Shown here in pieces: positions 636 to 3,758 of a stretch of DNA of 64,000 bases (its first letter is position 1; each line of letters opens with the position of its first letter). The notes below the pieces were generated by a model. That model ran no database searches. It was not told the DNA's origin and was given only the letters and a program-made list of their open reading frames with translations. This stretch comes from Anaerolineales bacterium (GTDB lineage: Bacteria; Chloroflexota; Anaerolineae; Anaerolineales; RBG-16-64-43), in NCBI GenBank assembly GCA_049516595.1, contig JBEKSY010000013.1, positions 11,475-75,474 on the forward strand, in the 5' to 3' direction. The translations under genes were made by a program, and so were the position numbers.

Positions 636-1187
636 CTAGGGTTTCGGCGATTCCTGCTTTATTTCCGCCAGGATGCAGTCCAGAAGTTCGAGAAGTACGG
701 TTTTCACCATTTCCCGGTCCGTGGCAACGCATTTCACGCAAGGGATGTCGGAATCCAGGCGCAGCGCGATTCGCAGGTCCTCGACCGACCAAGCATCCTC
801 TTGATCCTGCTTGTTGGCCGCTACGACAAAGGGCGTGGGGGCGTAGGCCCGAAAGGTTTCCATGATGTAGCGCGCCTCCCGGAACGTTTCCGGCCGAGTG
901 CTGTCGATAATTACCACAAACCCCAACATCCCTTCCGAAAGAATTTCCCACATGAAATCGAAACGCTTTTGGCCGGGTGTGCCGAACAGGAAAAGGACCA
1001 GGTCCTGGTCGACCGTGATGCGGCCGAAGTCCATGGCGACCGTCGTGGTTTCCTTGACGCGCTCGGTGGCCGACGAAATCTTGCGCTCGGTGGACACCAC
1101 GCTGATCTCGCTGACGGCCCGGATGAAGGCCGTCTTGCCAGAGTTAAACGGGCCGGTCACCACCATCTTCACGGTCTGCGGCGGCAC
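636..1187 (-). CDS. Small Ras-like GTPase (MglA/CvnD-type ATP/GTP-binding protein)
   Basis: G1 GPFNSGKT, G2 TTTVAMDFG, G3 GTPGQKRF, G4 NKQD. Confidence 0.9.
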   Translation of the reverse strand: MPPQTVKMVVTGPFNSGKTAFIRAVSEISVVSTERKISSATERVKETTTVAMDFGRITVDQDLVLFLFGTPGQKRFDFMWEILSEGMLGFVVIIDSTRPETFREARYIMETFRAYAPTPFVVAANKQDQEDAWSVEDLRIALRLDSDIPCVKCVATDREMVKTVLLELLDCILAEIKQESPKP

Positions 1188-1196
1188 TCAAAGACC

Positions 1197-2012
1197 TCAC
1201 AGAGAGCGGATGCGTCCGATCAGGCGATTGATGAGGGATGCCTGCTCGGGAGTTTTCGGAATCGGAGTGATACGGGGGGCGGCCGGTGAGGTGTCGCCCT
1301 GCAGGCGGACCACCTCCACCACCCCAGCCTGCATCAGACCGTAAACAATCCGCCGGATTTCTACATCGCTCAGCCGATTGGTGCGAGCGATTTGGCGTAT
1401 GGTGTTCTTGGGGTTCACGTAGGAGACTACCCGCCATTCCTCGACCGTCAGATTAATGCCGCGCAATCGCGAATCCGGCCGATCCGTGAATTTCAAGGCG
1501 AGATCAAGGTTGGGGATTTCTTCTTGGAGCGTCTCCCACTCTTTCATCCGGCGTGCGCCCTCCAGGATCAGGTTCTCCAGATTCAGGTGCACGGTGATGC
1601 GGTCGTCGGGTGGAAGGACGCCGTTGAAGAATTGGAAGGATCCCTCACTCCAGGTGAATAGTCTCAGAACGAGATCTGTGATGTACTGCTGAACGGCCTG
1701 AACGATGGTCGGCTGGTTGAGATAGCCTGTGTGGATCAGCAGCAGGCCCAACTCTTTGTCGTTGTTGGCCTGCGGCCGAGTCATCAGGAGCCGCGCCTGT
1801 TCCTCCGTCAAGTGCTTGGTCTGCCGCAAGATCGACACTAGATGGCCGTCGGTCACGCCGCCCTGGCCATAGATCAGCTTGCCCTCCGAGAAGGAAAGGC
1901 TGGCCTGATCGTTTGTCCCGTGAACGGTCAAGGTTCCGGTCTTATGGGCCAGATGAACTAGATTGAGGAGTTGAGTAAGGCTGAAATCGTGCAGGTCGCC
2001 CTTAAGGGCCAT
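1197..2012 (-). CDS. DUF4388 (PATAN-like) domain protein with C-terminal winged-helix
   Basis: N-terminus MALKGDLHDFSLTQLLNLVHLAHKTGTL, WSEGSFQF, and a wHTH-like segment LTVEEWRVVSYVN...IVYGLMQAGVVE. Confidence 0.85.
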   Translation of the reverse strand: MALKGDLHDFSLTQLLNLVHLAHKTGTLTVHGTNDQASLSFSEGKLIYGQGGVTDGHLVSILRQTKHLTEEQARLLMTRPQANNDKELGLLLIHTGYLNQPTIVQAVQQYITDLVLRLFTWSEGSFQFFNGVLPPDDRITVHLNLENLILEGARRMKEWETLQEEIPNLDLALKFTDRPDSRLRGINLTVEEWRVVSYVNPKNTIRQIARTNRLSDVEIRRIVYGLMQAGVVEVVRLQGDTSPAAPRITPIPKTPEQASLINRLIGRIRSL

Positions 2013-2240: not shown

Positions 2241-2269
2241 TTGACAAGGGAATCCTAAGCTGATACAAT
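2241..2269 (+). promoter_or_regulatory. Sigma70-type promoter of rplU-rpmA-rpmE
   Basis: TTGACA-N17-TACAAT with extended -10 TG. Confidence 0.8.
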
Positions 2270-2376: not shown

Positions 2377-2730
2377 ATGAAGTATGCCATCGTCCAGAGC
2401 GGCGGGAAGCAGTATCGGGCCGTTGAAGGCGCGACCATCGAAGTCGATCGCCTCTCCGTCGAATTGGGGGCCAGCCTCAAATTGGAGGAAGTGCTTCTCG
2501 TTGCGGATGGAGGGAAGATCGAGGTGGGTGCCCCCTATGTGAAAGGGGCGGTGGTGAGCACGAGCGTCCTCGAGCATGTGCGCGCTCCGAAAGTGCGGGT
2601 CTTCAAGTACAAGCCCAAGATGAGGTATCGGGTTCACCAGGGGCATCGTCAGAACTATACCCGCCTGCGCATCGAGGAGATCACGCGAGGCGCCGCCCGC
2701 AAGGCTACGAAGAAGACCGCCGAGGCATAA
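2377..2730 (+). CDS. rplU: 50S ribosomal protein L21
   Basis: MKYAIVQSGGKQY...GHRQNYTRLRI. Confidence 0.97.
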   Translation: MKYAIVQSGGKQYRAVEGATIEVDRLSVELGASLKLEEVLLVADGGKIEVGAPYVKGAVVSTSVLEHVRAPKVRVFKYKPKMRYRVHQGHRQNYTRLRIEEITRGAARKATKKTAEA

Positions 2731-2775: not shown

Positions 2776-3042
2776 ATGGCTCACAAGAAGGGTGCCGGAT
2801 CGAGCCGCAACGGGAGAGACAGCCGCGGTCAACGGCTGGGGGTGAAGCAGTACGGGGGTCAACGGGTGCGAGCGGGAAGCATTCTCGTGCGTCAGCGCGG
2901 GACTCGTATCCATCCCGGGCTCAATGTGGCCCGCGGAAAGGATGACACGCTGTTTGCGACAGCGGACGGAGAGGTCCGATTTGACCTGACCACAGGCGGC
3001 CGAAAACGGGTCAACGTCTTGCCGATGGAAGGTCAACCTTGA
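2776..3042 (+). CDS. rpmA: 50S ribosomal protein L27
   Basis: [16 protein letters not shown]...RLGVK...ILVRQRGT. Short N-terminus and no intervening prp gene. Confidence 0.97.
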
Positions 3043-3128
3043 TCCAAGTGACGATAGGGGACTCGAACTGCACCCCGGGCGTTCAAGCCGCCTCGCCCAC
3101 GGAGTAACGACCGGGGAAAGGATGTGGC

Positions 3129-3605
3129 ATGAAGGCGGGTATTCATCCAACTTATTATCCCAATGCGACGGTCATTTGCGCCTGTGGAAATACCTGGCAC
3201 ACAGGCTCAACCGTGGAGGTTATCCACACCGACATTTGCTCCAAATGCCACCCGTTGTTCACGGGCGAGCAGCGGATTGTCGACACGGAAGGGCAAGTTG
3301 ACCGGTTCTATCGCAAGCTTGAGGCGCGCTCCGCCTATCTGGCCGAGAAGGAAGCCCGTGACACAGCCCGCACCTCCCCCGACCAACCGCTGGCCACGCT
3401 TGAGCTCAGCGACCGGATCGTGAACACCCTGTCCCGTGCCGGAATCAACACGATCGCTCAGGCTCTCTCCAAACTCGAGGAGAGCGATGATGCGATTCTT
3501 GCCGTCGATGGATTCGGGCGCAAGAGCCTGATCGACCTCAAGAAGCGGCTTCGCCAACGCGGCTTCCCTCTTCCCGGCGAAGAGGCTCCGGCGACTCCCG
3601 AGTAG
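3129..3605 (+). CDS. rpmE: 50S ribosomal protein L31 (Zn-binding type) fused to a C-terminal RNA polymerase alpha-CTD-like HhH domain
   Basis: MKAGIHPTY..CACG..CSKCHPLFTG..VDTEGQVDRF, followed by LELSDRIVNTLSRAGINTI...GFGRKSLIDLKKRL. Confidence 0.92.
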   Translation: MKAGIHPTYYPNATVICACGNTWHTGSTVEVIHTDICSKCHPLFTGEQRIVDTEGQVDRFYRKLEARSAYLAEKEARDTARTSPDQPLATLELSDRIVNTLSRAGINTIAQALSKLEESDDAILAVDGFGRKSLIDLKKRLRQRGFPLPGEEAPATPE

Positions 3606-3625
3606 CCTGAGGGCCCAGTCGATGG

Positions 3626-3660
3626 AAAGGGGCGATTCCTTGGAATCGCCCCTTTTTGTT
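3626..3660 (+). terminator. Intrinsic terminator after rpmE
   Basis: AAAGGGGCGATTCC-TT-GGAATCGCCCCTTT followed by TTGTT. Confidence 0.85.
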
Positions 3661-3758
3661 CTCCTTCAGGATTGCCCATCTTTTTGTGAAACGGTGGAGT
3701 CTGAGGTAGACTCATCGCCGACATTCCGCGACAGGATCACACCGTTCTCGGAGGAAGG

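Follow-up and report, generated by a model that had tools for sequence, protein, structure and literature searches.

Genomic context of the rpmE fusion gene

The window, i.e. the complete stretch of 64,000 nucleotides from an Anaerolineales genome that was analysed, encodes a gene for ribosomal protein bL31 (rpmE) that is extended at its 3′ end by a domain of the RNA polymerase alpha-CTD type. The gene is the last of an rplU-rpmA-rpmE unit (Table 1), and its translation of 158 aa is the same as the sequence quoted in the first-pass annotation. All 76 related loci with sufficient flanking sequence have this gene order, with the L27 gene directly upstream and on the same strand. The segment containing the predicted terminator hairpin (positions 3606-3675) folds at -38.1 kcal/mol (z -4.79), which was equalled by none of 200 shuffles; a separate pattern scan did not list the hairpin.

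Table 1. Features of the rplU-rpmA-rpmE region, in coordinates of the window.
Feature	Position	Strand	Basis and remarks
Sigma-70-type promoter-like site (TTGACA, 17 nt, TACAAT)	2241..2269	+	Upstream of rplU; consensus match only, 11/12
rplU (bL21), first gene of the unit	2377..2730	+	Pfam Ribosomal_L21p, 119.5 bits
rpmA (bL27), directly 5′ of the fusion gene	2776..3042	+	Pfam Ribosomal_L27, 122 bits
rpmE-alphaCTD fusion gene	3129..3605	+	ATG start; 158 codons plus stop; the genome's only L31
bL31 core, zinc type, residues 1-63 (C17, C19, C37, C40)	3129..3317	+	Pfam; PDB; dN/dS
Helical linker, residues 64-87	3318..3389	+	Model helix 53-81; conserved positions; near-invariant length
Alpha-CTD-type (HhH)2 domain, residues 88-146, last helix basic	3390..3566	+	Pfam; Foldseek; dN/dS; charge
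Variable tail, residues 147-158, conserved L-P (P149) first, then stop codon	3567..3605	+	
Predicted intrinsic-terminator hairpin with U-run	3621..3660	+	About 20 nt past the stop codon of the fusion gene

Only one match to PF01197 was obtained in the genome, which is 93% complete, and the fused L31 is therefore single copy; the same search returned no zinc-free L31 paralog. A separate, normal rpoA is encoded elsewhere in the genome (C30). Contigs from independent studies cross the whole gene without indels in the open reading frame (X2, 3000-3700; X11, 3000-3660). Our analysis shows that the fused protein is the organism's sole, functional bL31. In the sources that name them, entries for these fused proteins are simply called 'L31'.

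Domain architecture

The N-terminus is a normal zinc-type L31, as had been noted from the sequence at first pass. Residues 1-63 match Pfam Ribosomal_L31 (PF01197) with 93.5 bits against a cut-off of 27, as well as the NCBIfam L31 equivalogs TIGR00105 (83.7 versus 38.35) and NF000612 (89.9 versus 70), and PDB sequence searches retrieved L31 chains at about 1e-19. The cysteines C17, C19, C37 and C40 (CxC ... CxxC) are at least 90% conserved in our alignment (A1); three fused relatives (L102, L103, L181) are without the zinc-type cysteines. Foldseek likewise matched the core to L31 chains, with 58% identity to L31 of T. thermophilus. Among the best 60 of 101 PDB matches no L31 chain aligned to the C-terminal part of the query, and the longer chains among them, namely an engineered L16-L31 fusion (148 aa) and a 136-aa chain aligned at positions 36-99, matched the L31 core only.

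The C-terminal part was identified as an alpha-CTD by Pfam (RNA_pol_A_CTD, PF03118, residues 79-142, 39.7 bits versus a cut-off of 23.8), by the C-terminal part of NCBIfam rpoA models and by a PDB sequence search, in which alpha-CTD chains of B. subtilis were found at about 1e-6. An AlphaFold2 model (pLDDT 78) consists of the L31 beta-core, a long helix at residues 53-81, which agrees with the charged helical linker described earlier, and a five-helix bundle at residues 88-143; pLDDT falls below 50 in the tail, at residues 152-156. In Foldseek the model superposed on the alpha-CTD chain 9dvt_A with a target TM of 0.90 and an rmsd of 0.9 Å over 62 columns. Both the alpha-CTD/HhH domain proposed in the first-pass annotation and the fold on which that proposal depended are thus borne out. 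The fused domain aligns without gaps to the CTD of the genome's own RpoA at 39% identity. A domain of the same type as in the window protein also terminates two membrane proteins (P0197 and P0211).

The four parts of the protein have dN/dS values of 0.085 (core), 0.257 (linker), 0.254 (alpha-CTD-type domain) and 0.441 (variable tail), and the domain is held by purifying selection at about 0.25. Linker positions L64, R67, Y/F70, R77, R/K81 and S83 are conserved, the equivalent of P315 is proline in 94 of 99 distinct fused domains, and 98 of 99 distinct proteins have the same distance of 37 residues between core and domain. The RpoA linker in Anaerolineae is also near-constant (38-41 residues), so that a fixed linker length discriminates only weakly between the possible roles discussed below.

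Distribution and origin of the fusion

We found the fusion in 95 of the 101 Anaerolineales genomes, in all 18 families and in every one of the 81 high-quality genomes. Of 146 Anaerolineae genomes outside the order, 19 had it as well, and it was not seen in other Chloroflexota classes; the BLAST-based extraction of L31 ORFs that was used recovered 100 of 100 loci. The fusion thus arose within the class Anaerolineae, and in Anaerolineales it is fixed. Conservation in relatives had been named at first pass as a point on which the annotation could fail; with the order-wide presence and purifying selection it held. Seven proteins among matches of 80-140 aa that might have been stand-alone CTD proteins (P0134, P0135, P0138-P0141 and P0144) were N-terminally truncated fragments of fused L31s. 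We found no description of an L31/alpha-CTD fusion in searches of the literature outside subscription journals.

The possibility that the extension is a functionless passenger or an artefact, caused by read-through, misassembly or neutral baggage, is refuted and retains a negligible probability. Independent assemblies agree, all of the 81 high-quality genomes carry the fusion, dN/dS is 0.25 and the fusion arose at least two times (see below); no points in favour of this explanation were found.

An insert of 3-4 residues is common to all 99 distinct fused domains and all 36 Anaerolineae RpoA sequences, and was present in none of 25 RpoA sequences from other Chloroflexota. The three residues held in common point to an origin of the fused domain from the Anaerolineae's own rpoA. 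A tree placed the fused clade as sister to the RpoA CTDs (SH-aLRT 81); in an earlier quick tree the clade was on a long stem branch and its sister group was not resolved. The fused domain is a paralog of the alpha-CTD in the RNA polymerase of the lineage itself, from which it has diverged.

DNA-contact residues and surface charge

In the numbering of E. coli rpoA, the DNA-contact ('265') determinant of alpha comprises R265, N268, N294, G296, K298 and S299. The first-pass annotation had regarded the DNA-contact residues as retained, and this holds for the window protein, where the equivalents of R265, N268, G296, K298 and S299 are R, N, G, K and S, but not for the family. Among 99 distinct fused domains R265 is kept in 97, G296 in 98, K298 in 92 and S299 in 87, whereas the N268 equivalent varies (E31/D23/G12/S10/A9), that of N294 is glycine in 97 and that of K271 is mostly replaced (A45/K14). 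All 61 canonical RpoA sequences of Chloroflexota have N268, N294 and K271; V264, invariant in real alpha-CTDs, is replaced in the fused domains as well, and the residue preceding the N294 equivalent is acidic in 87 of 99. In 20 phylogenetically spread copies N268 is asparagine in 3, K298 is lysine in 13 and S299 is serine in 11. With N268 and N294 replaced the fused family does not carry the full '265' determinant, and since N268, N294 and K271 are mostly replaced across it, canonical UP-element-type DNA binding is unlikely to be its conserved function.

These residues bear directly on the idea that the domain is a DNA tether, which would bind A/T-rich or UP-like DNA in the manner of an alpha-CTD and keep ribosomes at the nucleoid, close to genes being transcribed. 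Binding to the DNA backbone is common among HhH domains, and the five residues kept in the window protein would suit such a role. Acidic residues at N268 in 54 of 99 copies, the scarcity of asparagine there (3 of the 20 spread copies), the glycine at N294 with its acidic neighbour and the loss of K271 speak against it, and we regard a DNA tether as highly improbable.

What the fused domain has gained instead is positive charge. The stretch equivalent to E. coli residues 297-312 has a mean net charge of +5.0, compared to -0.0 in Anaerolineae RpoA, and position 305 is K or R in 99 of 99 fused domains and E or D in canonical RpoA. The last helix is strongly basic, with its charge reversed relative to RpoA. 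This would fit the main rival to the reading that we favour, namely a structural extension whose HhH domain is bound to the backbone of rRNA or to an adjacent ribosomal protein on the 30S head or central protuberance and reinforces or tunes bridge B1b, with no link to transcription. Lineage-specific extensions of ribosomal proteins usually bind rRNA. In addition to the basic patch, both HhH hairpins are kept in the counts given above for R265, G296, K298 and S299, and the linker is conserved and fixed in length. Furthermore, long charged helical tails (105-136 aa) are already present in non-fused L31s of Anaerolineae and in one L31 of a different class, so that elaboration of the bL31 tail is a trend of the lineage. 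Against a structural extension, K298 and S299 are kept in only 13 and 11 of the 20 spread copies, and it leaves unexplained why a domain of the window type also ends the membrane proteins. We consider it rather unlikely, also in view of the second fusion described in the following.

A second fusion and the C-terminal domain of NusA

In one lineage (G581) the domain on L31 is of a different kind. It shares 78% identity over 64 residues with repeat 1 of the neighbouring NusA of the same genome, and both fall into one clade (SH-aLRT 95). Its net charge is -6 and that of its linker -7. By kinship and acidic charge taken together, the G581 domain alone is of the NusA acidic-repeat (AR) type, and the window's domain is RpoA-type with a net charge of +1. 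On the strength of this kinship, lineage G581 gained its L31 domain independently, from the neighbouring NusA. Acidic domain and acidic linker fit rRNA binding poorly and argue against such a role in G581, and that transcription proteins were the source of the module on both occasions is left unexplained by a purely structural extension. Acquired at least twice and fixed order-wide, the fusion suggests repeated selection for a docking domain of the transcription type on ribosomes.

A candidate partner for such a domain is encoded in the genome itself. The C-terminal domain of its 638-aa NusA can be aligned with the fused domain without any gap (hhalign probability 92.5%, E 4.8e-7). A model of this NusA domain (pLDDT 89.9) superposed on alpha-CTDs with target TM values of 0.69-0.77 at about 2 Å, at weak Foldseek E-values of 0.15-1.7, and a sequence search against the PDB gave no relevant match. 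Its probable likeness to alpha-CTDs accordingly comes from hhalign, TM-scores with rmsd, and cross-matches to RpoA CTDs. The domain was present in 31 of 31 Anaerolineales genomes and was acidic in 15 of 15 sequences (-3 to -10). We also found it in many non-fused Anaerolineae lineages (e.g. G502, G346, G615, G535 and G588), and its co-occurrence with the fusion was therefore rejected as evidence; there is no specific co-occurrence, and the presence of both in the order may reflect shared ancestry.

A possible role in transcription-translation coupling

The reading that we favour, as a possibility that we would not yet call probable, is that the fused domain may be a ribosome-borne docking module for NusA or RNAP. 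In the 30S head S14 neighbours S3 and S10. The bL31 C-domain of E. coli is described as binding the head (S13, S19, S14), with its C-terminus on helix 41 (PMC9966373). Since it ends there near S14 and helix 41, the helical arm of the fused protein would, extrapolating the E. coli geometry, display the HhH domain at the 30S head of every 70S ribosome. The displayed domain could then dock the transcription machinery, most plausibly the acidic, alpha-CTD-like C-terminus of NusA, in a contact that would mimic the one between alpha-CTD and NusA AR2 in E. coli. For the E. coli complex TTC-B a preprint (bioRxiv 10.1101/2020.03.01.972380) describes alpha-CTD-I on NusA AR2 and alpha-CTD-II on NusA-N, with RNAP and NusG docked on the head proteins S3 and S10, and AR2 is given as the docking platform of alpha-CTD in PMC7171158. 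The lead ribosome would thereby be connected to the RNAP-NusA complex through a component of its own. In G581 the polarity would be reversed, with an acidic NusA-type domain on bL31 reaching for a partner of the alpha-CTD type.

Support for a role in coupling is circumstantial and consists of the acidic NusA domain, the complementary charges predicted for the two domains and the second fusion derived from NusA. Several points count against it. In TTC-B, as far as the same preprint describes it, NusA touches the 30S body (S2, S5) and not the head. N268, N294, K271 and V264, invariant in real alpha-CTDs, are replaced in the fused domain. The fixed length and conserved residues of the linker suit a module that is docked on the ribosome no less well than an arm that reaches out, and a basic patch beside retained HhH hairpins would be expected of a domain that binds the RNA backbone.

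Alternatively, the protein could act away from the ribosome. Free bL31-CTD, unassembled or released, would in this case compete with the alpha-CTD of RNAP for NusA or activators and report ribosome-assembly or zinc status to transcription. The paralogy between the fused domain and the alpha-CTD of the organism itself is in line with such a decoy or regulator, as are descriptions of E. coli bL31 as loosely bound and autoregulating its own gene (PMC7297116, PMC9966373). No result obtained here points to a free pool, the protein is the sole L31 with no zinc-free paralog for swapping, and the divergence at the alpha-CTD determinants argues against mimicry of canonical surfaces; we regard this explanation as improbable.

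Returning to the docking of NusA or RNAP, the proposal in its full form is more doubtful. Anaerolineales ribosomes might carry a built-in coupling factor, in which the alpha-CTD paralog displayed by bL31 binds the C-terminal domain of NusA (or NusA-NTD or RNAP), which would allow each ribosome to latch onto transcribing RNAP-NusA without relying only on NusG. The same link would have been reinvented with reversed polarity in the sister lineage through a NusA repeat on bL31.

Comparison with known systems

bL31 is the one protein-only inter-subunit bridge and rides on the swivelling 30S head, and alpha-CTD is the universal docking module of RNA polymerase. If the fused domain does bind NusA or RNAP, it would be, to our knowledge, the first known case of a ribosomal protein itself encoding the coupling link, and it would offer a natural system beyond E. 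coli and Bacillus in which to study how coupling is organised. Should rRNA turn out to be its target, the fusion would illustrate clearly how a domain from transcription can be recruited into the architecture of the ribosome.

The type-A (zinc) bL31/RpmE of E. coli and Thermus thermophilus resembles the first 63 residues of the window protein, with four cysteines, a single copy and a location in a ribosomal protein operon. Compared to canonical bL31, the window protein is about 90 residues longer and includes a helical arm, which is conserved, as well as a globular alpha-CTD domain. The alpha-CTD of RNAP (PF03118) has the same fold as the fused domain, in which the equivalents of R265, G296, K298 and S299 are mostly kept, but the fused domain is joined to bL31 and not to the alpha NTD, and N268, N294, K271 and V264 are replaced. 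As in the AR2/alpha-CTD pair of E. coli, both an acidic (HhH)2 C-terminus of NusA and a more basic partner of the alpha-CTD type are present here. In contrast to the NusA 'coupling pantograph' of E. coli TTC-B, the alpha-CTD-type partner would be found on the ribosome and not only on RNAP, the contact here being hypothetical. Should coupling be its function, the outcome would be the same as with the NusG and RfaH bridges (NusG-CTD to S10), i.e. the 30S head and the transcription complex joined by a flexible protein link; unlike these, the putative bridge would lie within a ribosomal protein instead of a transcription factor and would use an HhH domain instead of a KOW domain.

Identity and genomic context of the fused gene

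There is no question that the protein is a bL31; appended to it is a diverged alpha-CTD. Its reading frame is intact (ATG start, 158 codons) and translates to the sequence quoted in the first-pass annotation, whose proposal of an L31 fused to an alpha-CTD was borne out by both Pfam profiles, a PDB search, a structural model and Foldseek. Ribosomal_L31 matched residues 1-63 with 93.5 bits (cut-off 27) and RNA_pol_A_CTD residues 79-142 with 39.7 bits (cut-off 23.8); in NCBIfam, L31 equivalogs and the C-terminal part of several rpoA models were matched. All four zinc-type cysteines (C17, C19, C37, C40) are present. In the PDB sequence search, E-values were about 1e-19 for L31 chains and about 1e-6 for alpha-CTD chains of B. 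subtilis. The AlphaFold2 model (mean pLDDT 78; input A1, an alignment of 51 sequences) consists of an L31 beta-core, a single long helix (53-81) and a five-helix bundle (88-143). Foldseek paired it both with L31 chains from ribosomes and with a solved alpha-CTD, chain 9dvt_A (target TM-score 0.90, rmsd 0.9 A, 62 columns, 32% identity), so the C-terminal segment does model as an alpha-CTD/HhH fold.

The fused gene is a real gene and the organism's working L31. It is the one PF01197 match in the window's genome (G000; 93% complete, 74 contigs), and the two PF03118 matches are the fused gene and a normal 323-aa rpoA on a different contig. L27 lies immediately upstream on the same strand in all 76 loci with enough flank among 80 related ones, and the complete six-gene order is retained in 61 of the 80. 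Contigs from independent studies span the entire gene with point differences only and no indels in the reading frame; contig X2 covers 3000-3700 in one piece and X11 covers 3000-3660. Downstream of a minus-strand pair of GTPase and DUF4388 genes, another reading frame runs past the window start.

Coordinates of the fused gene, its surroundings and related loci
Feature	Position	Strand	Remarks
Small Ras-like/ATP_bind_1 GTPase and DUF4388 protein, adjacent	window 636-1187 and 1197-2012	-	
Promoter-like site	5' of rplU		
rplU (L21), rpmA (L27)	upstream of fused gene		
L31-CTD fused gene	window 3129..3605	+	
Hairpin with U-run, strong	3' of fused gene's stop codon		-38.1 kcal/mol, z -4.79
Thymidine kinase, phosphoribosyltransferase, CCA-adding-type nucleotidyltransferase	downstream of fused gene		
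G000 nusA	contig C12, locus L184:4-1920	-	outside window
G581 L31-CTD	locus L215 (G581:C9:63500-70500), 706-1224	-	
G581 nusA	locus L215, 2083-4122	+	
G581 infB	locus L215, 4641-6464	+	

Distribution of the fusion

A genome was called fused if a single frame aligned with the query over residues 1 to 143 or beyond. The first-pass annotation had asked whether the fusion is conserved in relatives, and it is widespread in the order Anaerolineales: 95 of 101 genomes, G000 included, carry it, among them all 81 of high quality and members of all 18 families. The six genomes without a detected fusion are 63-88% complete. The other orders of the class Anaerolineae contributed 19 fused genomes of 146 with completeness of at least 90 (8 families). 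No fusion was seen in 355 genomes from other Chloroflexota classes among the matches listed (best 150 of 792), where no match extended beyond residue 126 without internal stops; these matches reached down to E ~5e-23, and the weakest fused match anywhere had 2e-28. All 34 same-order and 3 of 11 same-class genomes in this phylum sample were fused, and six genomes flagged as unpublished (G272, G038, G173, G227, G344, G145) entered its negative tally only.

Of 8,000 candidates (86-277 aa) scored in a word-indexed homolog search, 7,829 matched at E <= 0.001. Both Pfam domains were precomputed in 112 of the best 120 homologs; the remaining 8 had PF01197 only, yet were full-length (160-161 aa). In the ESM Atlas the PF01197+PF03118 pair occurs in 12 large clusters, and where a phylum is known it is most often Chloroflexota. 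The best homologs came, where named, from Chloroflexi or Anaerolineales MAGs, and the best 80 genome loci from MAGs titled Anaerolineae, Anaerolineales, Anaerolineaceae, Bellilinea, Leptolinea, Chloroflexota or 'Chloroflexia', plus two odd labels, 'beta proteobacterium' and 'Candidatus Aquidulcis'. Loci L034 and L037 and the protein P0091 appear under these two titles and 'Gammaproteobacteria bacterium RBG_16_66_13'; given their 66-71% identity to the window protein, they are probably mislabelled or misbinned. Database names, where given, are plain 'L31', even though precomputed annotations show both Pfam domains, and full-text searches of openly accessible articles listed no description of an L31/alpha-CTD fusion.

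Fused copies L102, L103 and L181 (genomes G250, G322 and G613) have an L31 core with none of the four cysteines (non-zinc type), so the fusion spans both L31 chemistries. Other Anaerolineae families have non-fused L31s (L166-L174, L183; 105-136 aa) that carry no HhH domain but a long, charged helical tail (E/R/K/A-rich) at the C-terminus; L172 comes from G015, of a different Chloroflexota class. Judged from these sequences, elaborate bL31 tails are more widespread than the fusion and may predate it.

Origin of the domain from rpoA

As the first-pass annotation had suggested, the fused domain was compared with the CTD of the genome's own RpoA; the two align over 74 residues with no gap and 39% identity (E 2e-16). 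With E. coli rpoA numbering, 99 distinct fused domains were aligned to RpoA CTDs, 36 of them from Anaerolineae and 25 from other Chloroflexota classes; one of the 25 (L152) is from the unpublished genome G038. An insert of three, sometimes four, residues between positions 284 and 285 is present in 99/99 fused domains and 36/36 Anaerolineae RpoA, and absent from E. coli and from all 25 other Chloroflexota RpoA (0/24 without the unpublished one). Such a shared derived character points to the class's own rpoA as the source from which the domain was copied. In a first quick maximum-likelihood tree the fused domains formed a single clade (SH-aLRT 100) whose stem was long, about 1.6 changes per site. 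In a second, the main fused clade (30 window-type copies and 5 of 8 copies from other orders; SH-aLRT 95) was sister to the RpoA clade (support 81), and the G597 and G537 copies fell outside it on long unresolved branches. Both trees were built on about 65 columns, so their deep forks are weak.

Residue changes and selection

The first-pass annotation had read the DNA-contact set as retained. This holds for the window protein (R, N, G, K and S at R265, N268, G296, K298 and S299, which are among the DNA-contact residues of E. coli alpha-CTD) but not for the family, where N268, N294 and K271 are mostly replaced and only a minority shares the window's N at 268. Among 20 phylogenetically spread copies, R265 was found in 19, N at 268 in 3, G294 in 19, K298 in 13, S299 in 11 and R308 in 20. 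With N268, N294 and K271 lost, canonical UP-type DNA binding is very improbable.

Residue states in 99 fused domains (a sample skewed to close relatives) and 61 canonical RpoA
Position	Fused	RpoA
R265	R97, K2	R 61/61
N268	E31, D23, G12, S10, A9	N 61/61
K271	A45, K14, S10 and others	K 61/61
293	D52, E35	R 59/61
N294	G97	N 61/61
G296	G98	G 61/61
K298	K92	K 61/61
S299	S87	S 61/61
304	K97	mixed
305	K or R 99/99	mostly E/D
308	R or K 98/99	mixed

The mean net charge of positions 297-312 is +5.0 in fused domains (range 2 to 7), -0.0 in Anaerolineae RpoA and +1.2 in other Chloroflexota RpoA. F60 and the R265 equivalent are 37 residues apart in 98 of 99 distinct fused proteins, and linker positions L64, R67, Y/F70, R77, R/K81 and S83 are conserved; the RpoA linker in the class is likewise near-constant (38-41 residues, 36 sequences). 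Going by the sequences, the linker is more than a free spacer. Rough Nei-Gojobori medians of dN/dS (pairs among 44 genes, 0.3 < dS < 2) were 0.085 for the L31 core, 0.257 for the linker, 0.254 for the CTD and 0.441 for the tail. The basic patch, the retained hairpins and the fixed, conserved linker, together with the general habit of ribosomal protein extensions, speak for a purely structural, rRNA-binding extension, which is the main rival explanation and to us an unlikely though serious one.

A second acquisition and the NusA of this lineage

In genome G581 the L31-CTD gene adjoins nusA-infB in divergent orientation. The domain it encodes shares 78% identity with repeat 1 of the adjacent NusA (gap-free, 64 residues), 67% with repeat 2 and just 42% with the window's domain, and it groups with repeat 1 in the tree (SH-aLRT 95); this NusA carries two bona fide Pfam alpha-CTD domains (106.6 bits). 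This kinship means that bL31 acquired an alpha-CTD-type module at least twice, with the G581 fusion independent. The G581 domain has a net charge of -6 and its linker -7, and being acidic it is unlikely to bind rRNA.

The 638-aa NusA of G000 has NusA_N, S1 and KH domains and a ~270-aa extension that Pfam does not explain. The NTD-S1-KH-KH core is followed by an alpha-CTD-like HhH domain of acidic character (~451-508); a long, acidic stretch rich in Ala and Glu and a very basic tail complete the protein. The HhH domain aligns without gaps to the fused-domain profile (hhalign probability 92.5%, E 4.8e-7), and a model of the C-terminal region (pLDDT 89.9) resembles solved alpha-CTDs (target TM 0.76 for 8y5t_A2, 1.8 A, 63 columns; 0.77 for 9dvt_A; 0.69 for 1lb2_B) with weak Foldseek E-values. 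The domain is acidic in 15/15 aligned sequences (-3 to -10) and present in 31/31 genomes of the order. Many Anaerolineae lineages without the fusion also carry it, so its co-occurrence with the fusion is not specific. A basic motif at the extreme C-terminus (Lys/Arg run, then ...YD..LG..VA+++.KPGR.RE.WE), common to L184 and metagenome protein P0127, is a conserved element.

Residues 82-150 were used for an exhaustive search, which gave 642 cluster representatives at E <= 0.001, 49 of them at E <= 1e-10. P0127 has a NusA-like C-terminal tail with two alpha-CTD domains. Seven small matches inspected as candidate separate proteins were truncated fused L31 fragments. Metagenome proteins P0130 and P0132 are RpoA C-terminal fragments with two tandem alpha-CTDs, P0132 additionally with the end of an RNA_pol_L dimerisation domain; the alpha-CTD thus appears doubled in some RNA polymerases. 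Phmmer detected tandem alpha-CTD-like stretches in P0125 (528 aa; 8), P0126 (1059 aa; 7), P0128 (900 aa; 9) and P0137 (989 aa; 13), and Pfam counted 4, 7 and 9 in the first three; P0126 also carries a sigma-70 region 4 domain. P0197 (211 aa; three hydrophobic segments; 35.3 bits) and P0211 (313 aa; eight hydrophobic segments; 23.6 bits against a cut-off of 23.8) end in a window-type domain (GFGxKSL...LRxxGY/F-x-x-P) and may be membrane-anchored forms of the same docking module.

Possible function

On its helical arm, the domain would be presented at the 30S head, where it might serve as a protein-docking module linking the ribosome to RNAP-NusA. We tentatively favour this docking role because of that placement, because the module was apparently taken twice from transcription proteins, because the lineage's NusA has a complementary acidic domain of the same fold, and because the acidic G581 version is unlikely to bind rRNA. 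The free 'decoy' role raised in the first-pass annotation, with support neither for nor against it, is quite improbable. The main value of the fusion lies in a concrete, testable proposal on ribosome-RNAP coupling in Chloroflexota, a phylum in which such coupling is not known to have been described.

As described in PMC9966373, the N-domain of bL31 sits on the central protuberance; the C-domain lies on the head of the 30S subunit, where it contacts S13 and S19 and extends to S14, and the C-terminus binds helix 41. AR2 of NusA is reported as an alpha-CTD docking site whose occupation releases NusA autoinhibition (PMC7171158); AR-type domains are, per one paper, known solely from gamma-proteobacterial NusA. 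In the E. coli TTC-B complex, as presented in bioRxiv 10.1101/2020.03.01.972380, the two alpha-CTDs act as the flexible connectors from RNAP to NusA (AR2, NusA-N), RNAP beta' and NusG dock on S3 and S10 of the head, and NusA KH1 on S2 and S5 of the body.
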